From sequence record MW735835.1: a DNA stretch of 64,000 bases, one strand, 5' to 3'. The position numbers were made by a program, and so were the translations under genes. The notes under the pieces were generated by a model. It was given only the letters and a program-made list of their open reading frames with translations, was not told the DNA's origin and searched no databases. This document shows positions 12,070-60,386 of the stretch, piece after piece (position 1 is the first letter of the stretch; every line of letters starts with the position of its first letter). This stretch comes from Pseudomonas phage pPa_SNUABM_DT01.

Positions 12070-12092
12070 TTTTCATCAGCAATACATTATCC
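12070..12092 (+). promoter_or_regulatory. copy 1 of conserved AT-rich upstream element (TTTTCAtcaGCAATACATTATCC)
   Basis: AT-rich island right after stop 12064 and 16 nt before the GTG/SD of gene 12108. Shares the GCAATACAT core with six other copies. Confidence 0.45.
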
Positions 12093-12107
12093 TTACGAGG
12101 ATGCAAC

Positions 12108-12914
12108 GTGAATAACAACGTGTTCAACCTGCTGTTCGATCTCGATGCGATGTTTGATACGCGCATGGGGACTTTGTTGAACCTGAGTGAAGATGTGCAC
12201 ACGTTCCTGCCCATTCAGGAGTACCGCAATCGGACCAAGGACGATTTCGGGAAACTGACGGGCGGGCGTATTACTCAGGAAGCCTTTGAAGAGCGGTACG
12301 CCAAGCGCGACATCATGGTCTTGCGCCGTAGTCTGATCACCGGCCTCGTGCCGGTCGTTATGAGCTACATCGAAACTCTGCGTGAGCGGCTCTTCCGGGG
12401 TGTGGACGTCAGCGCCATCAACATCGACATCAACATCCATCCGTATATCTTGCCAGGCCCTATCGTGCAGACCATCAAGGACTGCTTGCGGGGCATCATG
12501 CCGACCTATGTCAGCATCTCTGCGGTGAGCTACGACCTGGACAAGCTCAACCTTGACTTTGTCGGGCAGCACTACAGTGGCTGGGCAACGTACGACATCC
12601 ACAAGTGGTTGGAGAAGTACCATGAGGCTTTGCTGCTCAAGCCGGTAAACGGACTTTCGGCCATAATCCCCAAGCTCTTTGTGCAAGAGCCTGGGGATCG
12701 TTCTGGACCGGAATCAGAGTTCTTCAACGGGGTGGATCGTCATGGTCTGCTGGAGATGGTCATGGAGGATTTCATCCACCTTGAACATGTTCCGGTCAGT
12801 GACTTCTGCTTCGTTGTACCGGGCAGCTACAAGATGCTGGAGGATCAGTCCTCTTCGCGTTCAGCAGCAGCGGCGTTCTCGGAAGCTTCTACGGCGGCTA
12901 CGAAGTCGTCGTAG
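12108..12914 (+). CDS. hypothetical protein, 268 aa (GTG start)
   Basis: GTG with AGGA 7 nt upstream and no in-frame ATG nearby. The 3' end overlaps the convergent gene 12845..13393 by about 70 nt. Confidence 0.5.
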   Translation: MNNNVFNLLFDLDAMFDTRMGTLLNLSEDVHTFLPIQEYRNRTKDDFGKLTGGRITQEAFEERYAKRDIMVLRRSLITGLVPVVMSYIETLRERLFRGVDVSAINIDINIHPYILPGPIVQTIKDCLRGIMPTYVSISAVSYDLDKLNLDFVGQHYSGWATYDIHKWLEKYHEALLLKPVNGLSAIIPKLFVQEPGDRSGPESEFFNGVDRHGLLEMVMEDFIHLEHVPVSDFCFVVPGSYKMLEDQSSSRSAAAAFSEASTAATKSS

Positions 12915-13393
12915 TTCACAGGCTGAGTGCCCTGGGTGGTGACATCCGGGACCAGCTTGGGGGCGGGCAGTGCAGCAGCCGGGTCGGCACGCTGAGTGAT
13001 GGCCGGCATGCTGCCCACTTCCACAGCGAACGGGTTGCGGCCATTGAGCATGCGCAGCAGTTCGTTGTTGGCTTGGGCCAGACGCTCGGTCTCGCTGCCT
13101 TGTGCTTCTTCCACGTCGATCTTCCGCGTGGTGAGTGCAGCGGAGTCCAGGTCGCGGAGCAGTTGCAGGTTCAGGTTCAGTTCTTTGTCGTCAGACGGGA
13201 TGCCGCGCTTGAAACGATCCTCCAGGATCTTCAGGCGGATACCCTGCGTGGTCTTGATGACCGCACTGGGATCGACATCTTGGTTGACCGCAAGCGGACG
13301 GTTTTCAGAGGCGAGATACTCACCATCCTTAACAGGATCGAGGTCGTCGCCGAGGGGAATCAACGTGCCTTCAAGGGGCTTCTGGGCAGACAT
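12845..13393 (-). CDS. hypothetical acidic protein, 182 aa
   Basis: ATG at 13391-13393 with GGAGA upstream on the minus strand. Confidence 0.5.
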   Translation of the reverse strand: MSAQKPLEGTLIPLGDDLDPVKDGEYLASENRPLAVNQDVDPSAVIKTTQGIRLKILEDRFKRGIPSDDKELNLNLQLLRDLDSAALTTRKIDVEEAQGSETERLAQANNELLRMLNGRNPFAVEVGSMPAITQRADPAAALPAPKLVPDVTTQGTQPVNYDDFVAAVEASENAAAAEREED

Positions 13394-13435
13394 GGGATAA
13401 TCTCCAAACAGTATTCATCCATAGGATCAGTTGCG

Positions 13436-13936
13436 ATGGGCAAGGAACCATCAAGTATGCGTAAGCTTTTCACATGGATATTCGGCAGTAAGGAGCCCGA
13501 ACCGATCGTCGGTAAGGACATTTATGAAACACTCATCAACCAATTAGGAGACATCGATGACCTAGTAGCTAAGAAATTCAGTGCATCGCAAACCAGACGA
13601 GTCGCGATTGAAACCGCGACAGCCAACATCGAGGAGTTGGCGGACTATCTGGTTGAAGCGTCGGCTTTTGTCAGCAAGGGCGAGACTTTCCCGCAGCGTT
13701 GGCAAGACCAAGTACTGAAGTACGAGACTCGCACCCTCGAGCAATATATCGCAGAAGCCGGTGAGCTTATCCATCCGTTGGATTGGATCAAAGCCCATCA
13801 GCACAACATCGTAAAGCTGTTGGACGCCTTCATGAAGATGGATGCTGCCGACCGTGACTACTACCAACGTAAGTGCAACTTCGTAGTCGAAGATATCCTC
13901 GAACTGATTAAGTCAAGTCGGGAGTGTGTTCGATGA
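13436..13936 (+). CDS. hypothetical protein, about 166 aa
   Basis: The track ORF 13073.. is an antisense extension. In-frame ATGs at 13436 and 13457 both have AGGA-type SDs. Confidence 0.5.
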   Translation: MGKEPSSMRKLFTWIFGSKEPEPIVGKDIYETLINQLGDIDDLVAKKFSASQTRRVAIETATANIEELADYLVEASAFVSKGETFPQRWQDQVLKYETRTLEQYIAEAGELIHPLDWIKAHQHNIVKLLDAFMKMDAADRDYYQRKCNFVVEDILELIKSSRECVR

Positions 13937-13957
13937 ACATCCAGGAAATCATCCATC

Positions 13958-16268: not shown

Positions 16269-16272
16269 CGGA

Positions 16273-16306
16273 CATAGGGCCCAGGGCAGCTGCCCTGGGC
16301 CCTATG
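16273..16306. terminator. bidirectional hairpin
   Basis: Perfect 17-bp palindromic stem CATAGGGCCCAGGGCAG / CTGCCCTGGGCCCTATG between convergent genes. Confidence 0.55.
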
Positions 16307-16311
16307 TCGCA

Positions 16312-24400: not shown

Positions 24401-24764
24401 TCGCAGGGAGGACCTTGTTGCCCACCATCTGCATGGCTTTTTGACCGAAACGCTTACTGCCACGAACGATCTCTGGGGAATCTCCAGTTATCTTATCGTA
24501 TAGCGATCGGGCATCGGATGCGACGTTTGAAACGGTGTCTGCGGCAAGGCCGTAGCCTGCTGGCAGGGCCATCGTCATGGCTTTGCGCAAAGCGGCCGGG
24601 GTGGCCAATTCTTCTTTGGCCCCTTGCAGCGCACCTTTGACTACACGAGTGACTGGCTTCCGGGAATTCTCGTCTGGCTCTTCATCGCCCTTCCATTCAG
24701 GAATGTCGAAATCGAAGCTATCGAGATCCATGTTGTCCAAGTCGATGTCGTCTTTCTTTGCCAT
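18444..24764 (-). CDS. giant virion protein, 2106 aa, with C-proximal lytic transglycosylase (SLT) domain; phiKZ gp181-like
   Basis: SLT catalytic motif VGVDPALAASIAGVESGFRPNAIPYKNP. Gly-rich TM-like segment GALIGAAGLVSAPVLAVIGIVGAGIAIGAYIY. Long coiled-coil/low-complexity N-terminal part. SD GGAGA 7 nt upstream of ATG 24762-24764. Its antisense carries the 1419-aa shadow ORF. Confidence 0.8.
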   Translation of the reverse strand: MAKKDDIDLDNMDLDSFDFDIPEWKGDEEPDENSRKPVTRVVKGALQGAKEELATPAALRKAMTMALPAGYGLAADTVSNVASDARSLYDKITGDSPEIVRGSKRFGQKAMQMVGNKVLPAKLVKRINDSLEEDTDYQVKSDADYKREQEESEIAALAEIFKAKGAADEEQRKQDAAQNLEEKALDQERFKSNIQVLTAINKSMARLVGYQDKVTAKYQQKMLELNYRQFATQRQLVDIMTEATQKHTVILENIRKNTALPEAVKIRGSEMFSQLAHQRLMGAGLNTISNWTQNYASQVMNNVSGMVQGVLDPMRQMNAMGGEDIDKHEMAGNVIGSMIGSTVRDYASLHLSPYLAKNKYIARGGEKLRNTFSGIPQRINEYAQSKTEGTGFRAIATQMFKNFLPQFSLDSRPGGTSVTKLDEVATFDAIARRSLIEIIPGYLSEIAHWSRIAVTGESKEDRRVYNVIRGGFTSEKEQLQDVSRQILNRSERDSLRLAAEDFLKEIGGDTMSSKAQRVLKRKILDELANGNDLVPKRLADPASYPNEDVGVVDEITSLIIDTFNLDLDGNMADGSTEGKSRFNDIRDKFLGMTSMIPAAGDRIRILGDVLGKDSLRKLGFIERQGREDRINFDKIWSSILDEDDNAGKAGTPQSGPNAPDLAGKLGDRGGIVGKISAALADSANRADRMVSERGEGETRRSGLERFLGDKSTLITLIRESRDFHSETVDLLKELTKCGCGGGGGSSQLYGDIQNGWRGFKGSVSENSKKLSDWSRGQYKKGQKKFGEFKATAKDIWIQGEDHPILQEYKLRAGEYKDKATGEVLKRWEDIQGDVVDLKGRTIAKYNDIVDSGVIADYKGKVQGTFADKYAKFKTSGAGVWTSGMIAGGKARINSLGNTINEMRGTGKPGEFVDNLGRKAAEEKKKFRPRMKRLMRFFGGGKAGADVSSELTGDKDEDMLTLALRSVQLQYETLKQVTQERVRKGSYKDLQAKRDAAIEKVKEAAKGKGSEIQGLFAKNGALATLMAQLGNKGDGDDEEGGGIMDSIGDWFGGGDGPDGKRKGGRAGRTAARRAGRVGRLGKIANWGGRQLDKMGTAGRILKGGLKGGAWLTKNAAKAAWWTTKTAFRGVGGAARLAGGILTNPLTRLVAGMAGRAALGALIGAAGLVSAPVLAVIGIVGAGIAIGAYIYAQNKEKLPPLTRIRMAQYGIKPKADSEEFKQLVELEKLFAQYTSVDSEGKATVNSQSVPVEALTKILKIDTEIPAEENELFARAGQFLKGRFAAVYLKHVSNYYALTKSTDLTQIDAKVTGKAAFQFADKVAMYDQPEVFNAMVSPFEDEELDMDAGDVKDVIAEAKDEIKEYIKKEEDKDKTSGEKMAGAVASGVIGSQIRGQAAKRLEAANVDTGSKSAIPTASKTDVPPVQSIQKATGGPGALLKTGMTSAPAAAGAALLMMKPGAATELDDGKPVRYRVYGLTEMLAIKSGHLEMLENSLWDRVKYDKGNQAFFDDPSECHGIAESIFSPIGNEAENVYIWFYRRFMPTFLQYCSSVRRRANIDAKDAADRLKTEELVDVLRETANARGEAEISVWDITESPWPGYALNDDPESVKEPLYLLSTKIKDKTLQENTAPIAGQVRDKDGKIIEKDQTQINRPASADGQQGPSSGSQGSQSGESDSWFGSMWKGAKDALGFGGDSKPAQQGAVSPSGQSVQPSGAAAFTPGTPISHPGGGSGGNINSIPEPKGDGWDNVKDTLMAAANMVGVDPALAASIAGVESGFRPNAIPYKNPKNPSAGVLSSAASFYQVIKGTWAELMKKYAAKYGINPNTTQHDPRANALLGLEFIKENIDVIKKVKSNVTDTDVYMAHFLGPYGAKRFLAAPPGDPAINHVGADQAKSNPSIFYDRNGNPRTVAAVYNDFDAKLTKHRKADAAQVAQSINGGVVKADDGTAVASGGNATDTSGSSASVPSMVKPAGDTDTTSAPNTVAQAAPADNANLAEKADARQVQNTTAPMEVAARVAETQTSTQSANAANTYGGMDKNMGRLIDVNEDQLEQLTILVNLVKSGGLPMPTPGQQAQELQASTQTTQNPSINTPKAAPKGVVSVARV

Positions 24765-24839
24765 CGAAATTCTCCAAATTGGCTTATAATACTAAGCCTC
24801 CTTCATACCAACTGTCTAAATGACTCCGAAATTTACGGG

Positions 24840-26543
24840 ATGCCTTTTATGACCGCCGATATGCAGCCCATCAACGGGCCTGTGGGACCCAGCATCCAGT
24901 ACGCTGAAGTCCCCGCAAAAGTCTGGCCGATGGTCCTGACGAAAGAGCGGGTGAGCCGGATGACTCCGGTGACCAGCTTGGACATCTACGACGGGGCCAG
25001 CAGCGAGTTCCACGATCAAGGTCTGTACTCGACTGCGATCTTTGGCCGTGTTGGTTCGGACGAGCGTGACACCACGTTCTCCTACATCGACCTGAAGGTG
25101 CGCATCTTCCACCCGAAGATCTTCCGTGACCTGATGAGCCTAAAGTCCATCTACCGCGGCATCTGCTCCGGGCGTGAGACGGCCATCTTCGATCCGGTGA
25201 CCAAGGACTTCGTTGCAGACAGTTCCGAGAAGGCTGAAACCGGCTACAGTTTCTTCGTACGCCACTTCCCTGAACTGCAACTGCGCAAGTCGAAGTCCCC
25301 GACTCGTCAGATCCGGGTGGAGTTCATCAACAAGTGGAAAGATGCAGCCCTCACCCGCTACATCCCTGTGTTGCCAGCAGGTATCCGTGACATCGAGATC
25401 GATGACAACGGCATGGCAACCAAGAACGAGATCCACGACCTCTACTACCGCGCGCTGTCCATCTCGAACACCATCCCGGTGACCTCCGACATGGAAAGTC
25501 CGGCCCTGGACATCGCCCGTAACGCGTTGACCAACTGCCTGTCCGAGATCTACGACCTGATCGAAGGCATGCTGGCTGGCAAGAACGGCTTCATCCTCGA
25601 CAAGTGGGCTTCGCGGCGTGTGGTCTACGGTACGCGTAACGTACTGACCGTGATGGACACCTCCATTGCGGACCTGAACAACGACAACGCCCCTGGTTTC
25701 GATGCGACCACCCTCGGCCTGTTCCAGGTCATCAAGGGCATGACGCCGCTGACCATCCACCACATGCGTCGGACCTTCGGCAATCAGATCCAAGCCGGTG
25801 AAGGCCAGGCTCAACTGATCGACAAGAAGACCTTGCGGCCAGTCTGGGTGACCCTGTCGCCCGATTCACGCGACCAGTGGACCACTCGTGACGGCCTGAC
25901 TGCGGTTATCGACCGTTACCAGATGGTCGAGATGCGTAACCGCCCTGTGGAGATCGAGGATCACTACCTCGCGCTGATCTACCGGGGTCCGGACAACACC
26001 TTCCGCATCTTCTTCGACATCGCCGAACTGCCGGATCACCTCGATCCGATGAACGTGCACCCGATCAACCTGGTCGAGCTGCTGTACCTGTGCGGTTATG
26101 CGTACTGGAACAAGTACTTCGCTCAGATCTGTCGTTACCCGATCTCCGGTAACCGCTCCATCTATGCTTCCCGCGTTTACGTCAAGACCACGGTGGTCGG
26201 TGAACGTCGTGTGGAGCTGAATGAGATGTGGGAACCGTACACCGATGAAGACCATGTGGCGCTCGAGTTTCCAAAACCGGGTTCGACCTCCTATATGGAC
26301 ACGCAGTCCCCGCACAGCACCAAGCTGGTCGGCCTGCAAGCGGACTTCGACGGTGACACCGGTTCGGCAACACTGATCATGTCCAAGGAAGCCATGCAAG
26401 AGAACGATCGTACTCTGCGTTCACGCCAGTACTGGGTGGATACCGACGGCTCCCTCATTTCTTCGTACGACTACGACACCCTCAAGTACGTCGTCACCAA
26501 CCTGACAGGACGATTCAAACATGGGCGTAATGTTTCTCTATGA
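24840..26543 (+). CDS. multisubunit RNA polymerase beta-prime N-terminal-like subunit
   Basis: Catalytic-site motif QADFDGDTGSATL (NADFDGD). Starts MPFMTADMQ... at ATG 24840; ATG 24849 is an alternative. A jumbo-phage-style split RNAP fragment. Confidence 0.6.
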   Translation: MPFMTADMQPINGPVGPSIQYAEVPAKVWPMVLTKERVSRMTPVTSLDIYDGASSEFHDQGLYSTAIFGRVGSDERDTTFSYIDLKVRIFHPKIFRDLMSLKSIYRGICSGRETAIFDPVTKDFVADSSEKAETGYSFFVRHFPELQLRKSKSPTRQIRVEFINKWKDAALTRYIPVLPAGIRDIEIDDNGMATKNEIHDLYYRALSISNTIPVTSDMESPALDIARNALTNCLSEIYDLIEGMLAGKNGFILDKWASRRVVYGTRNVLTVMDTSIADLNNDNAPGFDATTLGLFQVIKGMTPLTIHHMRRTFGNQIQAGEGQAQLIDKKTLRPVWVTLSPDSRDQWTTRDGLTAVIDRYQMVEMRNRPVEIEDHYLALIYRGPDNTFRIFFDIAELPDHLDPMNVHPINLVELLYLCGYAYWNKYFAQICRYPISGNRSIYASRVYVKTTVVGERRVELNEMWEPYTDEDHVALEFPKPGSTSYMDTQSPHSTKLVGLQADFDGDTGSATLIMSKEAMQENDRTLRSRQYWVDTDGSLISSYDYDTLKYVVTNLTGRFKHGRNVSL

Positions 26544-29500
26544 CCGCTATGTGAAATTGTTCGGTATCCGTCGGTTGGGTGAGATGGAAAACCCACGTGT
26601 ACGACCAATCGCTCGATTCGGTCTGCCCCGTGGGACCAACTTCCACTACCAACCGATGAACGAAACCGAACTGGGCCCCAGTGGGACCTCGCCGGTCATC
26701 GCAGCAGCGCAGCGTCTGGTGTACATTGACCATGTGCCCGACCTGTTGGCGAAAGAAGGGAACCCGCGTCCTACTTTCAAGCTGCTTGCTCCGATGATGC
26801 AGCAGTACCGTCGCGAGAACATGCAGATCCGTCCGATGAAGGACTACGATCAGGCTGCCAAAGAACCGCTGAACATGATTGTGGTGAACTACGCCATGGT
26901 CAGCCAGATGTTCAAGTACCAGCGCTCGGCGCTGAGTCGTTGGTGGGCTTGGCGTAACCTGCGTGGCACTCAGTGGGAACGCTTCAACCGCATGAAGACC
27001 ACGCACGAGCGTCATCACATCGTGGTCTTTGATTGCCCGAACTCGCTGCCTGCTCTGTCGGACCTGCGTAAAGCAGAACGCGCCATGACCCCGGCACTGA
27101 TGCAGGTTTTCAACACCCGCGAGCGTCTGGATTTGCTCGACCTGTTCATCTGGTTGGGTGAGAACCGCAAGTCGACCCCCATGGGCGTGCTGGATGAATC
27201 CCGCCTGCACGAGATCGACCTGATCATCCGTCGTGAAACTGGCTTCATCAGCATCAACCTCGGGCTGCTCAACAGCTTCCGTAAGGCTGGCGCTGGTGTG
27301 TCCATGGAATCCTTCGCCGACCAACCGGTCAGTGAGGACTTCGACTTCGAGGAAACTTACCAGCGTTACGTCTCCATGGAGATGGCTGGTGACGACACCC
27401 TCGATGAGGACATGCAGGTCTCGATGGAAGCTGCTCCTGGGTTGGACCCGAAGATCATCCAGCTGCGTTTCCTCAAGCTGCTGACCAAGATCATCGATCA
27501 GACCAACCCGATCGTGACAGCTCCTGCCGAACAGCAAGTGGAGGCCATGACCGAGGCGAAAGCTGAGGAAGAGGCTGCCCAGGCAGAAGAAGAACAGGCA
27601 CAGGAAGAACAACTCCTCGCAGAGACCGGCGCTGATGAACTGCTGGTCAACGAAGAGGAAGAGTTGGCTGCGGCGTTGGACGAACCGGCACAACCGGCCA
27701 ACGATTCCGAGCTGACGGACGAAGATGGTAACCTGATCATTGAGACCGGCAACCAGAACAAGGAAGCCGAGATCCAAGTGGTGGGCACGAGTAACATCAC
27801 GCACACCCTGACCAGTACCATCCAGTCGAAGATCGAAGACCTGGTGGACAAGGAGCTGATCACGGCGGCGCAATACCGTCGCATGCAGCGCCTAGCGGAA
27901 TCGTACAAGACCATGGAGAACCCATGGGACAAGTCGAAGACCGTCGAACAGTCCCTCGAGATCCCGTTCGAAGACCTCGCGCTCCAAGAGTCCGAGAACT
28001 ACCCGCAGATGGATGCCATCCGTGACCAATCGATGCGCCAGTCTACCGTCGAGAAGATGGATAGCCAGTACATCGAAAAGGTGATGAAGGGCGATATCCT
28101 GAACGCGGTGATGTCTGTTCAAAAGGCAGGCATCGCGGTGACCGGCTACGAGATCGAGACCGTCAAGGATGCGGTCAGCAACTACGAGATCCACCGGATT
28201 CAGTTGACCCCGGTGACGGGCAAACCGTCCACCATCAGCTTCCGTGTCCCGATCGTTGACAAGCGGGGTGTTTACATCTCCAACGGTCAGCGTTATCGCA
28301 TGCGGACCCAGAAAGCCGACGTACCGATCCGTAAGGTCAGCCCGATTCGGGTCGCCCTGACGTCGTACTACTCCAAGATGTTCGTGGAGCGTTCGCAGCG
28401 TGCGACGTTCAACTACGACGCTTGGGTTGGCAAGCAAATCATCGCTAAGGGCCTGGACCCGGCAGACACCAGCATCACCAACGTAAAGGTCGCTGACGTG
28501 GCCGACTACGAGCTGGACGTACCGACTGCGTACACCGTGATCGGTAGCCGCGTGATGAGCTTCGAGGCCAATGGCCATTACTGGTTCGACTACAAGAACC
28601 GAGAGCGTTCCCGCCTCTTCGACATGAAGCTGGTGGAGAAGATCGAAGCTGAGCACAAAGGCATGATCGTCTGCGGTCGCCGTGACCAGCGTTACATCAC
28701 GGTTGACAAGGACAACGCGTTCTACCTGCTCGACGAGAAGACCGGTCAGGTGACTGAACTGGGTCAAATCGAAGACGTGTTGGCGCTGCAACGCGACAAG
28801 TCTCCGGTGGGCATGGCCGAGATCAGTATCTTCGGCAAGATCATGCCAATCGGTATCGCGCTGTCGTACCTGCTCGGTCTGGATCGTCTCCTGGAGATGA
28901 CCAAGGCGAAGTACCGTGTGGTTCCGCTCGGCACCCGTCTGCAAATGTCGGATGACGAGTACGCCATCAAGTTCCTGGACGAGACCCTGGTGTTGGAGAA
29001 ATCTGACGTCCAATCGAGTCTGATCTTTGCAGGCTTCCTGCATTACCACAAGCACATCCGTAGCTTCTCGCGTCACAGCTTCAACGCGAAGGATGTGTAC
29101 TTCAATATCCTCGAGGCCAACGGCATTGGGCTGCGCTACATGCGCGAACTCGACCTCATGAACGCCATGTGGGTTGACCCGATCACCAAAGGCATCCTGG
29201 AATGGATGAAGGAACCGACCGAGTTCGTACCGTTGCTGATCCGTGCAGTGGAACTGCTCGTGACCCGTTACGTCCCTCAGAACGTCGAGGGCGCAGATGG
29301 GTTGGTCGAAGGGCAAGAACGTGCCAAGGGCTACGAACGTATCCCGGGTGCGATCTACGGTGAGCTGGTGCGGTCCATCCGCGTCTACAACTCCCGCTCT
29401 GCCTCGAACACCTCTTCGGTCTCCATGAAGCCACATGAAGTGTGGACCAACATCGTTCAAGACCCGGCCTCGGCGCTGGTCGACGACATCAACCCGATCC

Positions 29501-30912
29501 AGAACCTCAAGCAGAAAGAGATCATCACTTACGGTGGCCGTGGTGGCCGCAGTAGTCGGTCGATGACTGCTGAATCGCGTCTGTACAAGGAAAGCGACAT
29601 CGGGTTCATCTCGGAATCCACCGTGGACTCCGGTGACGTGGCGGTAATCACCTACATGTCGCCGAACGCGAACATCACCAGTGTGCGCGGCACGATTCGG
29701 AAGTACGATAAGGAAAAGGACGGCGCAGCTAACATCGTGTCGACCTCTGCCCTGATCTCTCCGTTTGCTGACCGAGACGACCCTAAGCGGGTGAACTTCA
29801 TCGGTATCCAGCAGTCTCACGTGATCTCTTCCGAGGGCTACCGTGAGTCCCCCATCAGCACCGGCTACGATCATGTTCTCGCTCACCGCGTGGATGAGAT
29901 CTTCGCCGTACCCGCCAGCAAGAACGGCGAGGTGGTGGAACGCACCGACGAGCACATCGTTGTTGCGTACGAAGATGGTACCTTCGAACACCTTGACCTG
30001 AGTACGCAGTACGGTATCTCGGCAGGGGCAGTCTACCCGCAGTACCAAGCCTCCACGTTCCAACTGGGCGACAAGGTCCAGAAGGGCGACATCCTCAAGT
30101 ACAACTCGGGCTTCTTCAAGCCGAGTCGTTTCCACCCACGTCAAGTGCAGTGGAAGGCTGGGGTCATCGCTCGGACGGCTTTGATGGAAGCCTCGTACAC
30201 CCTCGAGGACTCCTCGGCAATCGACGACTGGCTCGCCAAGCAATTGGGGTCGGAAGTCACCAAGGTCAAGACCATTGTTGTACGGTTTGACCAGACCATT
30301 CGGAACCTTGTCAAAGAAGGCGAGCATACGGACATCACCAGTATCCTATGCACGATTGAAGATGCTGTAACGGCGGATTCTGGACTCTTCTCTGACGATG
30401 ATCTCGACATCCTTCGCAAGATGGGCTCGGCTACTCCTCAAGCAGGGGCAGTTGGCGAAGTCTCGAAGATCGAGGTCTTCTACCACGGCGACCCGGACGA
30501 CATGTCGGATTCGCTGTTGGAGCTGGTGACCGCTCACGACAAACAACGCCGTAAGGCTGCGAAACGTCTGGGCATGGTTCCGTTCACCGGTCAGGTCGAC
30601 CAATCCCTTCGTATCGACGGGAACGGTCTGGAACTCGATCACGTTGCCATCAAGGTCTACATCACTCACCGTGAAGGCATGGGTGTCGGCGACAAGGCAG
30701 TGTTCTGTAACCAGATGAAGACAGTAGTGGGCCATCGTCTCGACGGGGTCAACGAAACTGCTGACGGGACAAAGATCAATGCCATCTTCGGTGCCAAGTC
30801 CGTAATGGACCGTATCGTCAGCTCGGCTTTGCTGATCGGCATGACGATCTCGACACTCACCGCTATTGGTGAGAAGGCCGCGGACATGTGGACTAACGTG
30901 TCCGAGCAGTGA
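26521..30912 (+). CDS. multisubunit RNA polymerase beta-like subunit, unsplit, 1463 aa
   Basis: Overlaps the upstream gene by 23 nt (translational coupling). Remote matches to bacterial beta from memory: YGGRGGRSSRSMTAESRLYKESDIGFISESTVDSGDV vs LGPGGLTRERAGFEVRD...CPIETPEGPNIGLI, and GDKAVFCNQMKTVVG vs GDKMAGRHGNKGVIS. Size is close to bacterial beta. Confidence 0.5.
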   Translation: MGVMFLYDRYVKLFGIRRLGEMENPRVRPIARFGLPRGTNFHYQPMNETELGPSGTSPVIAAAQRLVYIDHVPDLLAKEGNPRPTFKLLAPMMQQYRRENMQIRPMKDYDQAAKEPLNMIVVNYAMVSQMFKYQRSALSRWWAWRNLRGTQWERFNRMKTTHERHHIVVFDCPNSLPALSDLRKAERAMTPALMQVFNTRERLDLLDLFIWLGENRKSTPMGVLDESRLHEIDLIIRRETGFISINLGLLNSFRKAGAGVSMESFADQPVSEDFDFEETYQRYVSMEMAGDDTLDEDMQVSMEAAPGLDPKIIQLRFLKLLTKIIDQTNPIVTAPAEQQVEAMTEAKAEEEAAQAEEEQAQEEQLLAETGADELLVNEEEELAAALDEPAQPANDSELTDEDGNLIIETGNQNKEAEIQVVGTSNITHTLTSTIQSKIEDLVDKELITAAQYRRMQRLAESYKTMENPWDKSKTVEQSLEIPFEDLALQESENYPQMDAIRDQSMRQSTVEKMDSQYIEKVMKGDILNAVMSVQKAGIAVTGYEIETVKDAVSNYEIHRIQLTPVTGKPSTISFRVPIVDKRGVYISNGQRYRMRTQKADVPIRKVSPIRVALTSYYSKMFVERSQRATFNYDAWVGKQIIAKGLDPADTSITNVKVADVADYELDVPTAYTVIGSRVMSFEANGHYWFDYKNRERSRLFDMKLVEKIEAEHKGMIVCGRRDQRYITVDKDNAFYLLDEKTGQVTELGQIEDVLALQRDKSPVGMAEISIFGKIMPIGIALSYLLGLDRLLEMTKAKYRVVPLGTRLQMSDDEYAIKFLDETLVLEKSDVQSSLIFAGFLHYHKHIRSFSRHSFNAKDVYFNILEANGIGLRYMRELDLMNAMWVDPITKGILEWMKEPTEFVPLLIRAVELLVTRYVPQNVEGADGLVEGQERAKGYERIPGAIYGELVRSIRVYNSRSASNTSSVSMKPHEVWTNIVQDPASALVDDINPIQNLKQKEIITYGGRGGRSSRSMTAESRLYKESDIGFISESTVDSGDVAVITYMSPNANITSVRGTIRKYDKEKDGAANIVSTSALISPFADRDDPKRVNFIGIQQSHVISSEGYRESPISTGYDHVLAHRVDEIFAVPASKNGEVVERTDEHIVVAYEDGTFEHLDLSTQYGISAGAVYPQYQASTFQLGDKVQKGDILKYNSGFFKPSRFHPRQVQWKAGVIARTALMEASYTLEDSSAIDDWLAKQLGSEVTKVKTIVVRFDQTIRNLVKEGEHTDITSILCTIEDAVTADSGLFSDDDLDILRKMGSATPQAGAVGEVSKIEVFYHGDPDDMSDSLLELVTAHDKQRRKAAKRLGMVPFTGQVDQSLRIDGNGLELDHVAIKVYITHREGMGVGDKAVFCNQMKTVVGHRLDGVNETADGTKINAIFGAKSVMDRIVSSALLIGMTISTLTAIGEKAADMWTNVSEQ

Positions 30913-36684: not shown

Positions 36685-36718
36685 CATACAGGGAGGAGCC
36701 TAGGCTCCTCCCTGTATG
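36685..36718 (+). terminator. terminator hairpin fused to TATGCCG motif
   Basis: Stem CATACAGGGAGGAGC / GCTCCTCCCTGTATG (loop ctag). The 3' arm ends in TATG, continuing as TATGCCGTGTG. Confidence 0.55.
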
Positions 36719-36730
36719 CCGTGTGTTCGA

Positions 36731-36770
36731 TTCGATTCCAATATTTTTCAATGATACATGATACCAGTGA
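36731..36770 (+). promoter_or_regulatory. copy 2 of conserved AT-rich upstream element
   Basis: TTCGATTCCAATATTTTTCAATGATACATGATACCAGTGA; 45 nt upstream of ATG 36816. Confidence 0.5.
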
Positions 36771-36815
36771 CTAAGGAGAATAATCTCCCTTAACCATCTC
36801 CCTGGAGGAGTTATC

Positions 36816-37440: not shown

Positions 37441-37467
37441 AGGGCCTCCGGGCCCCTTCTTTTTTGC
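37441..37467 (+). terminator. intrinsic terminator
   Basis: GC stem AGGGCC / GGCCCC (loop tccg) followed by TTCTTTTTTG. Confidence 0.5.
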
Positions 37468-37478
37468 CCTGAGAGATT

Positions 37479-37509
37479 CCATTCAAGGAATTCTCAGAGA
37501 TACATTATC
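37479..37509 (+). promoter_or_regulatory. copy 7 (divergent) of AT-rich element
   Basis: CCATTCAAGGAATTCTCAGAGATACATTATC; about 100 nt upstream of ATG 37613. Confidence 0.35.
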
Positions 37510-37612
37510 AACGTGTATATTGGAAGCAGTGCGTAAATAAAAACGCAACGCGCTGAAGATGTGCGACAACACGTGTTGATCGATCATTTCTACATCCCTA
37601 GGAGTTACACCA

Positions 37613-38092: not shown

Positions 38093-38110
38093 GCTGATCG
38101 CCCCGGCCCG

Positions 38111-38160: not shown

Positions 38161-38182
38161 CTGATACCAAGGACGCACCACC

Positions 38183-38728: not shown

Positions 38729-38773
38729 TCCGCGAGTGGGGAGTGCGTTGACGCTCCCCTACTGAGGTGTCTT

Positions 38774-39289
38774 ATGAAAGCGCTCACCCCTATTGAAGGC
38801 GCCTTGATTGGAGCAATGCAGGCGGCTCGTCCGTACATCCAGCGCTCATTGCTCGAACAGCAAGTGTGGACGTACCAGTTTGGTGACGGTCCTACTTACC
38901 CCGAGGACTTCACGATCCTGGACAGTCTGGACAGCGATAACGACATCATTGAATTGCGCTTCACTCCGACCAACCGGCCGGATTATGAACTGCGCATCTG
39001 GGTGAAGTTCATCGAGGCTCCGACCAAGCAAGTGACCGACCACCTCGAAATCGATGTCAACCTGACGCATGGTGCTGTCTACATGGAAGGCGCTACTTGC
39101 GAGTGTCACTCCGAAGAGTACAACATCGTCCAGGACATCGGGACGGTCATCAATGTCATCGCGAACATGGACCTGTGCTTCAAGGTGCGCGCCGAAGCTG
39201 CGGCTGCCCTAGCACAAGTCGCCCAAGCCCAGACCGAACGAGAAGAACGCAAGGCGCGCTTCTCCGTCGTTGAAGGCACCAAGCATTAA
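38774..39289 (+). CDS. hypothetical protein, 171 aa
   Basis: SD GAGG upstream of the ATG. Confidence 0.6.
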   Translation: MKALTPIEGALIGAMQAARPYIQRSLLEQQVWTYQFGDGPTYPEDFTILDSLDSDNDIIELRFTPTNRPDYELRIWVKFIEAPTKQVTDHLEIDVNLTHGAVYMEGATCECHSEEYNIVQDIGTVINVIANMDLCFKVRAEAAAALAQVAQAQTEREERKARFSVVEGTKH

Positions 39290-39301
39290 GGCCCAGCCAG
39301 C

Positions 39302-39670
39302 ATGGAACTTTTCGATTATTACGTCGAACCTGTGGTCAATGTAGAGACAGCCTTTAACCATGTGGCCTTAGAGGCCGCTATAAGGCTCATAGAGAGCGAT
39401 TCAGACGTTCACCCGTACAATCCCTCTCAACGCATTGATCTACGTGCTATGACGCACGTGGAGAGCATTAATGCCCTGCGTGAGCTGATCCATATGTCTG
39501 GCTTCGAACTGGACATCAACAAGATCCTCTGCGAGAACAACCGTTTAGAGACCCCGTACGAGCGCACCATCAAGAAGGCGTTCATGACGAATCACTACAT
39601 GGTCGAGTCCTCAAAAGGCTGGCTGGTCTTCGATACTCATGTGGACACTCACATTGAGGTCTACAAGTGA
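39302..39670 (+). CDS. hypothetical protein, 122 aa
   Basis: ATG with AAGG upstream. Confidence 0.55.
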   Translation: MELFDYYVEPVVNVETAFNHVALEAAIRLIESDSDVHPYNPSQRIDLRAMTHVESINALRELIHMSGFELDINKILCENNRLETPYERTIKKAFMTNHYMVESSKGWLVFDTHVDTHIEVYK

Positions 39671-39675: not shown

Positions 39676-39697
39676 GGGGAGAGCGCTTGCTCTCCCC
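39676..39697 (+). terminator. hairpin followed by TATGCCG motif
   Basis: Stem GGGGAGAGC / GCTCTCCCC (loop gctt), then gcTATGCCGTGTC. Confidence 0.5.
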
Positions 39698-39708
39698 GCT
39701 ATGCCGTG

Positions 39709-39747
39709 TCGATTGAAAAGTTTTACAGCAATACATGATAGCAGTGA
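39709..39747 (+). promoter_or_regulatory. copy 3 of conserved AT-rich upstream element
   Basis: TCGATTGAAAAGTTTTACAGCAATACATGATAGCAGTGA; 35 nt upstream of ATG 39782. Confidence 0.5.
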
Positions 39748-39781: not shown

Positions 39782-41419
39782 ATGAGTAAAGTTGCAAACG
39801 TAACCATCATCGAAGGCGCTGACAAGATGTTCAAGACCGGCAAGGTCGTCAACACCTTCAAGCTCCTGGAACAGTCCGCTGTGCTGCTGCACGAAGGCAA
39901 GCCCAGCGTGAACCTGCAAGACACCGAGACCCTGATCGTCCGCCGTGGACAGTACGGCGCCATCAATATCAGCATGCTGACCGGTGAAGGCGATGGCGAA
40001 CTGGGCATCAAGATCACTGCCGATGGCCAGGGCTTGGAAGACTGCCACGCAGATCGCACTGGCAACATCATCATGCGTTGGGCCTATTCCAAGATCAAGG
40101 AAGAAGGTCCGTCGCTGTCCGGTGGTGTCGACGATCGTCACGAGCTGGAAGAACAGCGTCGTGATCCGGCGGCCGTGGCCGCACGTGCTGCTCAATCGGG
40201 CGGGCCGGACAACCTGGCCGAAGCTGCGTTCATGGAGAAGATCATCGACATCGAGGCTCACCACAACTCCGACATCAAGACCTCCTTCAACCGCCACGGT
40301 GTGAAGGCAATCCTGACCTGGGCACATCGTCAAGACCTGGACGGCGCCTCGGCAATGGCGCACGAAGGCAAGCTGGTCGATGACACCATCGAAGTCCTGG
40401 CCCGCAATATCCGGGAATTCCCGGAATCTCCGCGTGATCTGCGTGTTGCCCTGAAGGCCGATCCTGCTGGCCTGGGGATCGACGTCGTGGTATTCGGTCG
40501 CACCACTGACCTGTACCGTGTCGACATCGTCAACAACGACCTGAACCTGGTTCATCGCAACTTCGCAGTCAGCAAGGACATGCCGATGGTGATCATCAGC
40601 GACGTTACCATCAACGGTACCGCGCCGGTGACCATGGCTCGTCTGCCGGTGAACGAAGTCACCAGCTTCAACCAGACCACTGCCGATGTGAAGTTCGACG
40701 CGCTGATCCTCAACGCTGACCTGGAGCACGTGATCGCCTACTTCGGTCCCGAGCAACTGGATAAGCTGGTAGGTTACGTGGTCACCGAGGTCTTCAAGGA
40801 CCCGACCGTGACCATGAAGTGGGTGGACAGCATCAACGTCCGTCTGGTCGACAATGCTGATGGCTACTTCCTGGTTGTGGAAGTGGTGCAGCAAGGTTCG
40901 ACTCCGTCGTACGTCGGCGAGCTGTACTCGGTCAACGAGAAGGGTATCCTGATCGAGGACCACAACGTGGCGTTCGCTCTGCACCCGGGCTGGACCATTC
41001 AACTGACTGGCTTCCGGGCTACCCCGGCCAGTGTGCTGATGGGTCGCAGCCATCGTCCTCGCCTGCATGCGGATCGTGACTTCGGTCGTGGCCGTGAGCT
41101 GGGGGATTACGAACGTCTGGGCCCGCTGTCTGGTGGTCAGGAGGAAGAAGAGCAGCGTCGTGAAGATCCGGTCCGTATCCCGAACCGCGAATGGATTCCG
41201 CAGATCAACCAGTTCGTCCACATCGAGGGCGAGCCGACTCTGTACTTCATCGCGGACTACGACCAACTGGAACATCGCTTCCTGCTCAAGCAAGCCGACA
41301 GCAGCCGCCGTGAACGCGACAGCCGTCTGGACAGCCGTTACCGTGACAACCGCAAGAACGCCGACGGCCTGATCCCGGTTGAACCGGGTCGTCTGCGCCC
41401 GTTCACCTTGTTCCACTAA
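39782..41419 (+). CDS. hypothetical protein, 545 aa (probably abundant structural protein)
   Basis: SD GGAGA; preceded by terminator, TATGCCG and AT-rich element; followed by a strong terminator. Confidence 0.65.
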   Translation: MSKVANVTIIEGADKMFKTGKVVNTFKLLEQSAVLLHEGKPSVNLQDTETLIVRRGQYGAINISMLTGEGDGELGIKITADGQGLEDCHADRTGNIIMRWAYSKIKEEGPSLSGGVDDRHELEEQRRDPAAVAARAAQSGGPDNLAEAAFMEKIIDIEAHHNSDIKTSFNRHGVKAILTWAHRQDLDGASAMAHEGKLVDDTIEVLARNIREFPESPRDLRVALKADPAGLGIDVVVFGRTTDLYRVDIVNNDLNLVHRNFAVSKDMPMVIISDVTINGTAPVTMARLPVNEVTSFNQTTADVKFDALILNADLEHVIAYFGPEQLDKLVGYVVTEVFKDPTVTMKWVDSINVRLVDNADGYFLVVEVVQQGSTPSYVGELYSVNEKGILIEDHNVAFALHPGWTIQLTGFRATPASVLMGRSHRPRLHADRDFGRGRELGDYERLGPLSGGQEEEEQRREDPVRIPNREWIPQINQFVHIEGEPTLYFIADYDQLEHRFLLKQADSSRRERDSRLDSRYRDNRKNADGLIPVEPGRLRPFTLFH

Positions 41420-41433
41420 TCCTGGACAGACGG

Positions 41434-41478
41434 CATACAGGGCGCCCATTGGGCGCCCTGTATCCGTTTCTTTTTTTT
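41434..41478 (+). terminator. intrinsic terminator
   Basis: Stem ATACAGGGCGCCC / GGGCGCCCTGTAT, then cgTTTCTTTTTTTTGTTT. Confidence 0.65.
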
Positions 41479-52121: not shown

Positions 52122-52126
52122 TGCGG

Positions 52127-52160
52127 CATACAGGGCAGGCCACTTGGCCTGCCCTGTATG
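52127..52160. terminator. bidirectional hairpin
   Basis: Stem CATACAGGGCAGGCC / GGCCTGCCCTGTATG between convergent genes. Confidence 0.5.
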
Positions 52161-54304: not shown

Positions 54305-54356
54305 AGCTGGTATCCTGTTGGAGACAGTAGCCTGAGTATCATAGCGATACGCGGCT

Positions 54357-54394
54357 CCATTCGAAATTTCTTCAACCATACATGATAACGGTGA
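54357..54394 (+). promoter_or_regulatory. copy 4 of conserved AT-rich upstream element
   Basis: CCATTCGAAATTTCTTCAACCATACATGATAACGGTGA; 40 nt upstream of ATG 54435. Confidence 0.5.
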
Positions 54395-55580: not shown

Positions 55581-55614
55581 AGAGCCTAGGGATCTCCCTA
55601 GGCTCTTTTCTTTT
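55581..55614 (+). terminator. intrinsic terminator
   Basis: Stem AGAGCCTAGGGA / TCCCTAGGCTCT (loop tc), then TTTCTTTT. Confidence 0.6.
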
Positions 55615-55902
55615 GAATGAAGGGGGTCTGTATAGTATGCAAGTCTTGCTCACTTACTCGGGAAGGAAAGAGAAGGGGGTAAGACTAATGACGAACGAAG
55701 TGAGGAATTAGTCTGGGGGATGAGATAGGAAGGGTATAGTCTGCCGTGTTGGTGGCTATCTGGAGGGAGAGGTTACTCGACCGGAGGAGAGACAACACAC
55801 GAGCCCTTCTAGTGAGGCGAAGCCTCACCTTATATAGATTTTGGGATGACGACCCAAGTGATATGGCAATTTTCGTAGAGAAAAACTTTTAGACCTCCGC
55901 CC

Positions 55903-55932
55903 CAGTCAGCGCAAGCTGACGTTTTTATTTTT
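55903..55932 (+). terminator. intrinsic terminator inside the non-coding locus
   Basis: Stem CAGTCAGC / GCTGACG (loop gcaa), then TTTTTATTTTT. Confidence 0.5.
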
Positions 55933-55973
55933 GATGTCTGGATACTGTATAGCTTCGGCAATGGAGAAAACAC

Positions 55974-57260: not shown

Positions 57261-57291
57261 CATAGCGGAGGGCCTAGGCCCTCCGCTTATG
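57261..57291 (+). terminator. hairpin fused to TATGCCG motif
   Basis: Stem CATAGCGGAGGGCC / GGCCCTCCGCT(T)ATG, continuing as TATGCCGCC. Confidence 0.5.
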
Positions 57292-57306
57292 CCGCCTCAC
57301 CGAATT

Positions 57307-57344
57307 CTATTCGAATATTTTTCAGCAATACATAGTCACAGTGA
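57307..57344 (+). promoter_or_regulatory. copy 5 of conserved AT-rich upstream element
   Basis: CTATTCGAATATTTTTCAGCAATACATAGTCACAGTGA; 48 nt upstream of ATG 57393. Confidence 0.5.
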
Positions 57345-58630: not shown

Positions 58631-58637
58631 CGGAATA

Positions 58638-58685
58638 AGAGCCGGGGCATGCGCCCCGGCTCTAGTCCTTCTTTTTTTCTTTTTT
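58638..58685 (+). terminator. intrinsic terminator
   Basis: Stem AGAGCCGGGGC / GCCCCGGCTCT, then a T-run cttctttttttcttttttg. Confidence 0.65.
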
Positions 58686-58747
58686 GCTCCAGTAAAGAAA
58701 TACGCAAGTGAGCCATACTCTGAGAGACTGGTTCCTGCTTCTTTCTG

Positions 58748-59575
58748 TTACCGGCGCGAGCCTACCACGTAACGGAGGAGTCGTCGGTGCTGGTCTTTGT
58801 TCGCCATCACGCCGGACTTTCTCCACTTCTCAGTGAAGAACTCCTTGTACATCTGGTTGGCATCGGCGTAGGTGTCGATGATCTCCCGGATGCGGCCCAG
58901 GGACGCACCACCACGGATCGCACCTTCATCCAATGGGATGACGGTCTTGTTGAAGATCCAGGCTTTGCAGGCCAGCGTCACCATCTCGCTGAACTTGTCC
59001 GCCCACAAGCCCGAGATGTTCGCGAGGTTCGGGTCGTGAGTGACCAAGCAGCGCAGGAAACTGATGCCCGGGACACGGTTCATGTTGGTGACCATCACGG
59101 TGTTGTCCGCCACCAGCGTGCAGTACGCGCTCTGCACTTGCGTCCAGGCAGCGTTGGATTGCATCACTCCAGCGGCTGCTTCCAGTACCATCGACCGGTC
59201 CTCGGAGATCACCCCCACGTTCCCCAACGTGTGTCCTTGGCCATAGCTGAGGCCATAGACCTCGGTGATGCTCCGGCCCTGGGTGAGTTCTTTTGGGATG
59301 CGGTAGATGTAGGTCCAGTTATCGACCCGTTCGCCGGGCACGTTGGTCAGCGGCAGGAAGACTTCGACACCCGAACAGAGGTTCATGTCTACCAGCACGC
59401 GGCCTTCGATGATCTGGCGGCGGATCACGGTATCGTTGCTGATACCGGTGGAGTAATCGCGAATCAGACCTTGTTTGGTCGGATCGTAACGAGTCGGCGA
59501 GAAGGCGTAACGAAGCACTTCTTGCGGAATCTCGAAGTTTCTGAGCCTGTCAAGGGCTACGGTGATAAGGTCCAT
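58748..59575 (-). CDS. hypothetical protein, about 275 aa
   Basis: The track start 59623 overlaps the divergent gene and promoter. ATG at 59573-59575 (MDLITVAL...) has GAGG upstream. Confidence 0.5.
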   Translation of the reverse strand: MDLITVALDRLRNFEIPQEVLRYAFSPTRYDPTKQGLIRDYSTGISNDTVIRRQIIEGRVLVDMNLCSGVEVFLPLTNVPGERVDNWTYIYRIPKELTQGRSITEVYGLSYGQGHTLGNVGVISEDRSMVLEAAAGVMQSNAAWTQVQSAYCTLVADNTVMVTNMNRVPGISFLRCLVTHDPNLANISGLWADKFSEMVTLACKAWIFNKTVIPLDEGAIRGGASLGRIREIIDTYADANQMYKEFFTEKWRKSGVMANKDQHRRLLRYVVGSRR

Positions 59576-59636
59576 TGTGAGTGCCTCAATGAAGACGAAG
59601 GTACACATGATGGGTGTCAACATAAGGAGCGCACTC

Positions 59637-60359
59637 GTGCAACAAGAAACGGCCCACCTCTGGGATAGCTTGCAGTACCGTCAGGAAATGCATGATCGAC
59701 TGTTCCACAGCGACATCTACAACCTGGCCAAGCCCCACCGCCTGACCCACTTGGTTCTGCATCAGGCCAAGTACGTGTCGCGCTACCACATGGCCCTCAA
59801 GGATGCCGATGCGTTCCGTAAGACCTACTCGGACAAGTCGGAAACCACCACGTTGCCCGAGGGCCACATCACTGAAGCCGTGAGGCGACTGACCATCGAC
59901 GGGGTGATCATCTGCCTGTCCACGTTGAACGTCTGCAACCGCAAGATGTCCGACCTGCTCGACAAGTACATGATCTGGGATCTGAACGAATGTGCTGATC
60001 AACTGATCGTCTCCATGGGCAAGATGGCCAAGACTGTGGAAGACATCGACCACATGGCGCAGATCCGTCCGCTGGGCACCATGGTCGAACTGACAAAGGT
60101 CATGACCCAGGCGTACATCAACCTGTGGACCTTCTCCAGTGACCGAGATGGCGTTAATCATTTGCTAGAAGCATGCTACCATCGGCTGAACGAGGTAGAG
60201 CGGAAGCACATCTTCGCCGATCAGCTCCAGACCGAGATGCTCGTCAGTATCAACGAACATCGCAAGCGCACCGGCCATCCGACCGTGACCCCATCTGCCG
60301 CCTACATGGACATCGCTGTATGGCGCAGTGGTAATGGCGGCGGTGCCGTCTCCGGCTAA
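59637..60359 (+). CDS. hypothetical protein, about 240 aa (GTG start)
   Basis: Strong SD TAAGGAG 7 nt before GTG 59637; the track ATG 59562 overlaps the divergent gene. Confidence 0.5.
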   Translation: MQQETAHLWDSLQYRQEMHDRLFHSDIYNLAKPHRLTHLVLHQAKYVSRYHMALKDADAFRKTYSDKSETTTLPEGHITEAVRRLTIDGVIICLSTLNVCNRKMSDLLDKYMIWDLNECADQLIVSMGKMAKTVEDIDHMAQIRPLGTMVELTKVMTQAYINLWTFSSDRDGVNHLLEACYHRLNEVERKHIFADQLQTEMLVSINEHRKRTGHPTVTPSAAYMDIAVWRSGNGGGAVSG

Positions 60360-60360
60360 T

Positions 60361-60386
60361 CGAACTTTCCACAATGATACATTATC
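60361..60386 (+). promoter_or_regulatory. copy 6 of AT-rich element
   Basis: CGAACTTTCCACAATGATACATTATC, right after stop 60359 and 42 nt before the phuZ ATG. The ORF-track start 60374 lies inside it. Confidence 0.45.

Follow-up and report, generated by a model that had tools for sequence, protein, structure and literature searches.

A seven-copy AT-rich element in Pseudomonas phage pPa_SNUABM_DT01 as the probable early promoter of a phiKZ-like virion RNA polymerase

Based on the analysis of 64,000 nucleotides of Pseudomonas phage pPa_SNUABM_DT01 (MW735835.1), referred to here as the window, a long AT-rich element is present in seven copies, and these copies are very probably the early promoters of a phiKZ-like jumbo phage, read by its virion RNA polymerase (vRNAP). 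The motif recurs far above chance expectation, is placed upstream of genes, is conserved in related phages and agrees position by position with known vRNAP promoters. Signals of this type have been described before in phiKZ and related phages, and the element is not of a new kind. In the proposed mechanism, a multisubunit vRNAP, carried in the capsid and entering the cell together with the DNA, would recognise the elements by binding to ATTCSAA at about -30, to the T-rich TTTTTCAA at about -20 and to the AT-rich core TACAT(G/T)AT at about -10, and RNA synthesis would begin six bases past the core at an invariant G, which is usually found within GTGA. Each copy would launch a short unit of mostly orphan genes or of the PhuZ tubulin gene, and such a unit would begin just past the terminator of the preceding unit and end at the next hairpin terminator.

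Copies and anatomy of the element

All seven copies reported in a first-pass annotation of the same sequence were present, and they could be aligned without gaps on the hexamer ATACAT, which is invariant in 7/7 and starts at positions 12082, 36754, 37500, 39731, 54378, 57328 and 60377 (these anchors are used below as names of the copies). The GC content is about 57% over the window and 31-36% in the copies, in line with the description of AT-rich elements in a GC-rich genome, and the + strand assigned to them was correct for every copy. A 44-nt weight matrix gave the seven sites 39.0-53.8 bits, while the next best position on either strand reached 12.8 bits. When the copies were scored by leaving each one out of the matrix, every copy stayed within the top 7 of the window (20.6-44.8 bits). 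The core pattern ATACATKATMNNNGTG had five matches versus 0.12 expected, and none of 100 shuffles reached five. The gene list leaves only 7.0% of the window non-coding, and all seven copies lie in this fraction, for which the chance under random placement is about 0.07^7.

The literal sequence GCAATACATGATA, which had been proposed as the core, occurs exactly only once and three times with two mismatches or fewer; the seven-copy family is better described as a degenerate motif. The CAGTGA box named together with it also needed correction, as what is conserved is an invariant G, usually within GTGA. The four long copies have CAGTGA or CGGTGA at this place, and the box is reduced to GTG at 37500 and 60377 and to the G alone at 12082.

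Four blocks at fixed spacing make up the element: ATTCSAA (about -30), TTTTTCAA (about -20), which is a T-rich tract ending in CAA, TACAT(G/T)AT (about -10), and, after six bases, the invariant G. The core A-TACAT(G/T)AT-(A/C) was found in all seven copies and also across 36 distinct instances from the window and related contigs, for which the consensus of the long form is attcGATTCgAattttTTtCAAc.ATACATgaTAgcgGTGA. The pattern TACATKAT-(6N)-G holds in 7/7 window copies and the dinucleotide TG in 6/7; copies 36754 and 39731 carry TACATGAT as their core stretch. The copies fall into two classes. Class A (36754, 39731, 54378 and 57328) combines strong -30 and -20 blocks and the full GTGA with the core ATACATGATA, or ATACATAGTC in the case of 57328. 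In class B (12082, 37500 and 60377) the upstream blocks are weaker, the core is ATACATTATC and the last block is reduced to GTG or G. The two classes probably differ in strength or timing. The coordinates of all copies and of the features around them are collected in Table 1, in which the start sites are predictions from sequence.

Table 1. Copies of the element, polymerase genes and terminators in the window (all on the strand given; matrix score from the 44-nt weight matrix; rank from the matrix built on phiKZ sites)
Feature	Coordinates	Strand	Core or sequence	Predicted +1	Score (bits)	phiKZ-matrix rank	Implied leader and start codon	Remarks
Copy 1, class B	12060..12098	+	ATACATTATC, 12082-12091	G12097 (doubtful)	39.0		11 nt, GTG12108	weakest copy; leave-one-out rank 7; 268-aa phrog_3328 protein downstream
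Copy 2, class A	36732..36770	+	ATACATGATA, 36754-36763	G36769	53.8	4	47 nt, ATG36816	full length; ATTCCAA 36735-36741, TTTTTCA 36744-36750, GTGA 36767-36770; three small open reading frames downstream; positional orthologues L033:7186 and L028:1880
Copy 3, class B	37478..37516	+	ATACATTATC, 37500-37509	G37515	42.5	1	98 nt, ATG37613	four-gene unit 37613-39670; orthologues in L033 and L028
Copy 4, class A	39709..39747	+	ATACATGATA, 39731-39740	G39746	48.1	6	36 nt, ATG39782	orphan 545-aa protein; monocistronic, terminators on both sides; orthologues L033:10442 and L028:5059
Copy 5, class A	54356..54394	+	ATACATGATA, 54378-54387	G54393	50.4	5	42 nt, ATG54435	divergent intergenic region
Copy 6, class A	57306..57344	+	ATACATAGTC (variant), 57328-57337	G57343	52.1	2	50 nt, ATG57393
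Copy 7, class B	60355..60393	+	ATACATTATC, 60377-60386	G60392	40.0		36 nt, ATG60428	PhuZ tubulin downstream
Two RNA polymerase beta-like subunit genes (639 aa, 1463 aa)	24624..30912	+						phrog_2986, phrog_3148; within virion-protein block
Terminator-type hairpin	36685..36721	+	15-bp perfect stem; 3' base runs into TATGCCG					ends 11 nt before copy 2
Canonical intrinsic terminator	37442..37465	+	GGGCCTCCGGGCCC then CTTCTTTTTT					upstream of copy 3
Hairpin terminator	39676..39706	+	hairpin then GCTATGCCG					ends 3 nt before copy 4
Hairpin terminator	57264..57294	+	hairpin then TATGCCG					ends 12 nt before copy 6

A Shine-Dalgarno sequence and an open reading frame (ORF) in the same direction follow the element in 35 of the 36 distinct instances, and the distance from the core end to the start codon is 16-103 nt, most often 34-61 nt, so that the earlier estimate of 16 to about 100 nt can be kept. 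The leaders implied in the window by the invariant G are mostly 36-50 nt long, and those of phiKZ are typically 31-40 nt (PMC8244752). The genes that follow the copies encode PhuZ, one phrog without assigned function and otherwise orphans, and orphan genes have likewise been reported among the early genes of AR9 (PMC5312081) and 201phi2-1 (PMC11512511).

Agreement with known early promoters, conservation and alternative explanations

Jumbo phages that encode RNA polymerases each carry a phage-specific AT-rich motif near -10 of their early operons, and wherever tested, this motif was an early promoter read by the injected vRNAP (PMC7598289). In phiKZ, 28-32 early promoters with the published core TATATTAC (PMC7058600) are read by the injected enzyme; their -10 box is of the extended type, and a T-rich part lies upstream of -19 (PMC8244752). 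The early promoters of AR9 were mapped by differential RNA sequencing (dRNA-seq) as AAATATATATTAT-(6N)-G+1 and are insensitive to chloramphenicol, and in phiKZ and phiR1-37 the conserved start also lies 6 nt past the element (PMC5312081). The early promoters of phiKZ and 201phi2-1 are conserved at -10, -20 and -30 (PMC11512511), and the length of about 38 nt, which had been regarded as exceeding a simple -10/-35 pair, is therefore normal for this type of signal. Predicted early promoters of N1M2, OBP, 201phi2-1, EL and phiKZ have been compiled in Table 2 of PMC7058600.

We found seven sites with the core TATATTAC in the first 50 kb of phiKZ, and one of them is located upstream of the shell gene gp54. 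These sites read ATTCAAAcatATTTAAAcagTATATTACtaactTGA, share the invariant TG and span 36 nt from ATTC to TGA, as does ATTCCAAtaTTTTTCAAtgATACATGATAccagTGA of the window. When about 128,000 positions were scored with a matrix built from the seven phiKZ sites only, five window copies came out at ranks 1, 2, 4, 5 and 6. The best register of the phiKZ matrix was offset 0 at 7/7 copies, and AT-richness alone is insufficient to explain the fit because none of 500 column-permuted matrices was as good. Of the 35 positions of the N1M2 string, 22-28 agree with the copies (28/35 for copy 37500), and of the 33 of OBP, 23-27 agree; the background level is about 12 +/- 2.5, and the matches to the N1M2, OBP and EL consensus sequences are 4-6 standard deviations above background. 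TACATTATY, the core of EL, is found in the window at the three class-B copies and nowhere else (3 vs 0.24 expected). A blastn search of the 44-nt consensus against GenBank phages returned only a chance half-length match, and none of the cultured phages has a motif similar enough to be picked up by blastn.

The -10, -20 and -30 geometry of the element is superficially bacterial, and a host promoter read by the sigma-70 RNA polymerase has to be considered, in which the -10-like hexamer would be the AT-rich part and the upstream T-tract an UP element; CATTAT and CATGAT indeed share 4/6 positions with TATAAT. But a consensus scan (TTGACA, 16-18 nt, TATAAT, at least 9/12) called none of the six copies that it covered, the best -35 candidate was TTCGAA at a 15-nt spacer, phages of the phiKZ type develop independently of the host RNA polymerase, and the vRNAP promoters that the element matches come from phages of unrelated hosts. 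The host promoter is accordingly a very improbable explanation. A little more weight, though still very little, can be given to an operator for a DNA-binding regulator of the phage or the host, such as a dimeric factor on the partly palindromic GATTCGAATC near -30. As infection proceeds, early transcription has to be switched off (PMC5312081), and ATTCGAAT forms an 8-bp palindrome in some copies (57328 in the window, and copies in the related loci L005, L022 and L039). On the other hand, many copies carry the non-palindromic GATTCCAAT, the whole element keeps a fixed orientation and spacing to the invariant G and the downstream gene, and the -30 block has its counterpart ATTCAAA at equal distance in the phiKZ early promoters. 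A separate operator layered onto the promoter and overlapping the -30 block could exist, and it is not needed to account for the element.

The genes of the window encode a giant tail protein, tail sheath, terminase, prohead protease and virion proteins, and also an SbcC-like nuclease, an RNase H-like ribonuclease, a UvsX-like recombinase and the PhuZ tubulin. Gene order in the tail sheath/terminase/PhuZ neighbourhood mirrors that of phiKZ. Along its whole length, the 1463-aa beta-like subunit is about 39% identical to the large beta-like subunit of phiKZ-like phages, and the annotation of the homologue in OBP is virion-associated. The two beta-like genes probably encode the vRNAP that reads the element, and the enzyme would be packaged in the virion. 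No copy of the promoter motif was found in front of these two genes (24624-30912). Because of the split beta-like genes, PhuZ, the phiKZ-like gene order and the subunit identity, the window is assigned to a GC-rich, phiKZ-like, nucleus-forming jumbo phage. At the nucleotide level, similarity is weak (<70%, short stretches) and is to jumbo phages of Xanthomonas, Ralstonia and Burkholderia. No tRNA or tmRNA was found in a scan of the window.

The first-pass annotation had offered the promoter of a phage-encoded multisubunit RNA polymerase, of late or middle class, as one of two explanations. The polymerase part of this proposal is retained, based on the match to vRNAP early promoters, and the late or middle class is not. 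Transcription by a non-virion phage RNA polymerase (nvRNAP), middle or late, would be plausible in so far as the phage is expected to encode such an enzyme too, PhuZ and some other genes could be middle genes, and the phiKZ shell gene gp54 has both early and middle start sites (PMC8244752). The virion blocks of the window lie at 24.6-36.7 kb (+), 41.5-44.5 kb (-) and 44.6-52.1 kb (+), and no copy precedes them or lies within a recognisable virion block (tail sheath, terminase, protease, vRNAP or structural genes) in the 64 kb. Late promoters of phiKZ are defined by TATG at the start (PMC7598289) and those of AR9 by AACA-(6N)-TA/G (PMC5312081), while the bases around the predicted +1 of the element are (C/G)(A/G)GTGA and fit neither; the TATG strings near the copies belong to the bases of terminator hairpins. 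In the middle promoters of phiKZ, the only motif is a weak one at about -22 to -24, AT-rich or TACT (PMC8244752), and reviews hold that middle and late promoters cannot be found bioinformatically. The element, however, matches early promoters position by position, and we regard the nvRNAP as an improbable reader of it, if a slightly better candidate than an operator.

The early-promoter assignment was examined further in relatives, where related contigs and loci are denoted by L-numbers; L116 is Xanthomonas phage RTH11 (OQ790161.1, 284188-296964) and L037 is IMGVR_UViG_3300033997_000136 (213 kb, 41% GC). Pattern scans and matrix scoring detected the full 44-nt element almost unchanged in at least 10 IMG/VR contigs, several of them 250-277 kb long, and eight more sites came from seven metagenome contigs with a GC content of 50-56%. 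One of the relatives of 250-277 kb is IMGVR_UViG_3300014697_000001. L033 and L028 are syntenic with the window at 29.8-45 kb, and the orthologues of 36754, 37500 and 39731 keep the A-B-A order of classes. When these contigs are aligned with the window, the element, for example at copy 36754, hardly varies between about -34 and the predicted +1, then conservation stops until the Shine-Dalgarno sequence, and the stem of the upstream terminator changes by compensatory substitutions. Orthologues of PhuZ (52-78% identity) were present in five IMG/VR loci, of which four keep A(T/C)ACATTATC-N3-(G/A)TG upstream although their intergenic surroundings have diverged. The core of copy 60377 is also found upstream of the PhuZ orthologues in L001, L002, L003, L005 and L039, with diverging flanks. 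Copy 57328, with ATACATAGTC, lies about 3 kb upstream of PhuZ, and the copies in L002-L005 lie about 2-3 kb upstream, in front of ORFs of similar size, and read (A/C)TACATAGTA, which is closely related; the AGTA form of this variant is ATACATAGTA in L002 and L005 and CTACATAGTA in L003 and L004. In L037, which belongs to a different uncultured jumbo clade, a related site ATTCAAAgACACATTATTaacCTGA is located 58 nt before a chimallin homologue.

The second explanation offered originally, a conserved RNA element of the 5' leader, did not stand up to these data. Such an element would work post-transcriptionally, for example in stability, translation control or protein binding. The element is always upstream of a start codon and on the coding strand, and about one third of the predicted leaders have a small significant hairpin just past it, but such hairpins belong to some leaders and not to the element. 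The 44-nt element itself is unstructured (minimum free energy 0 to -6.2 kcal/mol; z from +1.25 to +1.96 for five copies, -0.99 and -1.44 for 37500 and 60377), and a scan of the whole window at gathering thresholds matched no Rfam family. Four copies start 3-12 nt past a terminator, which therefore leaves no room for a separate promoter. Moreover, conservation ends at the predicted +1 while the leader itself diverges, and the distance to the start codon varies over 16-103 nt. Of the explanations weighed here, a leader RNA is the least credible.

Several points weigh against the assignment of the copies to a vRNAP as early promoters. Which polymerase reads the element, at which base it starts and that it does so early are all assigned by homology, and the roles of the four blocks by analogy. 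The seven phiKZ reference sites were picked by the core TATATTAC and not from mapped start sites, and the register of the start site rests on statements in PMC5312081 and PMC7598289. With the phiKZ matrix, the two lowest-scoring copies reached only ranks 22 and 76. The closest cultured relative is Xanthomonas phage RTH11, and its PhuZ is only about 35% identical. Copy 12082 fits least well: its -30 and -20 blocks are degenerate, the GTGA box is absent, and the Shine-Dalgarno sequence GAGG begins at +1 to +2, even though the core matches that of EL exactly. This copy may be a weak or non-functional promoter, and a near-leaderless mRNA may be the other possibility.

Transcription units, terminators and neighbouring features

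A terminator hairpin had been said to lie usually just upstream of the element, and it does so directly in 4/7 copies (36754, 37500, 39731 and 57328). Three of these four hairpins end in TATGCCG without a T-run. In the orthologues of the hairpin before copy 36754, the stem varies with compensation and the tail is invariant. Hairpins of this kind form a second conserved element of the window: they are GC-rich and perfect, are located just past stop codons, often have CATA...TATG at the base of the stem and carry the tail TATGCCG. They were found at 3643-3674, 7897-7930, 16271-16308, 36685-36721, 39676-39706, 41431-41463, 52124-52160, 57264-57294 and 61428-61464. All seven occurrences of TATGCCG in the window follow such a hairpin, three of them between convergent genes, and several of the hairpins are symmetric, so that they would work in both directions. 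They resemble the terminator motif published for phiKZ, in which TTATKYYGT comes after a hairpin, and Xanthomonas phage RTH11 has them too. TATGCCG was considered as a late promoter of the phiKZ type (TATG) as well, and this was rejected as its main role since the 3/7 between convergent genes have nothing to transcribe downstream.

Some leaders contain further conserved features. A small stem-loop, GGAGA-ATAA-TCTCC, follows several class-A copies at about +7 to +20 (36775-36788 in the window) and is also present just past GTGA at L028:1880, L002:79, L005:1222 and L003:891 and in L011 and L019. Its arms differ between phages and stay complementary, and the left arm is Shine-Dalgarno-like. This stem-loop may be a 5'-terminal stabilising hairpin. 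The predicted leaders overall have a mean z of -1.28, with 34% below -1.5. In the 98-nt leader of copy 37500, a block at about 37560-37600 is conserved in the syntenic L033 and L028 and includes the perfect 12-bp palindrome CAACACGTGTTG (about 37572-37583), which reads aGCACGTGTTGAC in relatives. The block could be an operator or an RNA element.

The orphan 545-aa protein (39782-41419) behind class-A copy 39731 had no match in Pfam, PDB or GenBank phages. It was also considered as a chimallin, but it is not recognisable as one: PDB, Pfam and tblastn gave no match, and a local comparison with phiKZ gp54 showed no significant similarity. Only its C-terminal ~85 aa (RDWIPQ.NQFV..EGE...Y.IADYD...ADS.RRER...) are shared with proteins in L007, L028 and L033, which differ in length and likewise sit behind class-A copies (L007, 622 aa; L028:5059 and L033:10442, 346 aa). 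A purine-rich stretch of about 370 nt at 55607-55973 has no ORF, lies between two terminators, contains three (G)TATAG(T) repeats and ends in a canonical intrinsic terminator (55905-55920 and a T-run). Its predicted fold is somewhat more stable than that of shuffled controls (z -2.44). It matched no Rfam family and nothing similar was seen in the fetched loci, and it may be a non-coding RNA gene.

Two of the relatives contribute related sites. In L037, two sites of the same core family, ATACATTATCattGTG and ACACATTATTaacCTGA at 9030 and 9156, lie ahead of a gene for a 636-aa protein homologous to gp54, the shell protein of phiKZ, and the pair recalls the two start sites reported for phiKZ gp54. 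In RTH11, the intergenic regions 1799-2047 and 5149-5316 of L116 contain looser look-alikes, GATTCAAAAGAACTTCAGTTACATACTAC and CTATTCAACAAACTTTCAAATATAGAATATC, whose spacing is seemingly shifted by about 2 nt, and GATTCAAAAGAACTTCAGTTACATACTAC lies directly past a hairpin and TTATGCCG terminator.

Implications and comparison with known promoter systems

The copies and the terminators together give a map of the early regulon for a GC-rich clade of nucleus-forming jumbo phages, with predicted starts at single-base resolution and with transcription units bounded by promoters and terminators. The early-promoter layout of phiKZ, OBP, EL and AR9 is thereby seen, with unchanged spacing, in phages only very distantly related to them. 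Such a map may be used in annotating metagenomic jumbo phages and in picking candidate host-takeover genes, and it is comparative input for the question of how the vRNAP recognises promoters. The sub-classes are kept at corresponding positions in relatives, class A with ATACATGATA or ATACATAGT(C/A) and class B with ATACATTATC, the latter before PhuZ in six phages; PhuZ identity between phiKZ and the GC-rich clade is below 30%. As a tentative idea, to which we would not give even odds, a grammar of ATTCNAA, a T-rich tract ending in CAA, TAYATKAY, 6N and G may be conserved position by position across very distant nucleus-forming phages, with the sub-classes as kinetic tiers or as a sign of dependence on a co-injected factor. 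The tiers could be immediate-early and delayed-early, or could differ in their need for the co-injected factor. If this is true, the GC-rich clade would be a clean comparative data set for vRNAP recognition, in which the AT-rich signal stands out sharply.

The phiKZ genome has about 37% GC, against 57% here. The element shares with the early promoters of phiKZ the four-block layout and spacing (ATTCAAA, ATTTAAAC, TATATTAC and N5-TGA, i.e., ATTCAAA...ATTTAAAcagTATATTAC-N5-TGA) with the same 36-nt span. In both phages promoters are found directly past a hairpin terminator with the tail (T)TATG(Y)(Y)G, and small orphan genes follow behind comparable leaders. They differ in the core, which is TATATTAC in phiKZ and TACAT(G/T)AT here, and in the -20 block, which is ATTTAAAC in phiKZ and TTTTTCAA here; the two consensus sequences agree at only 22/39 positions, and the phiKZ promoters have been studied experimentally whereas the window sites are predicted. 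The core TACATTATY of EL is identical to the class-B core. OBP and N1M2 read TTTCARRYAKATATTATYWAAGTGWA and have the TTTCA block, the core position and a GTG(W)A box three bases past the core in common with the element. These three are AT-richer cultured phages of Pseudomonas and Klebsiella, and unlike them class A has a G at the sixth core position (ATACATGATA) and a stronger GATTCSAA block further upstream. The published predicted early promoters of 201phi2-1 match the window element in layout and spacing.

AR9 has a uracil-containing genome and forms no nucleus, and its motif is without the ATTCSAA and TTTTTCAA blocks, but it has the same arrangement of an AT-rich core (...TATATTAT vs ...TACATTAT), exactly six bases and a conserved G, which is the mapped start in AR9. 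The promoters of the N4 vRNAP and of the T7 type are also long, phage-specific and read by a phage-encoded polymerase, which is injected in the case of N4. Those enzymes are single-subunit polymerases, however. The early promoters of N4 are DNA hairpins and those of T7 form a contiguous block of about 23 bp, whereas the element described here shows neither feature and has no inverted repeat.

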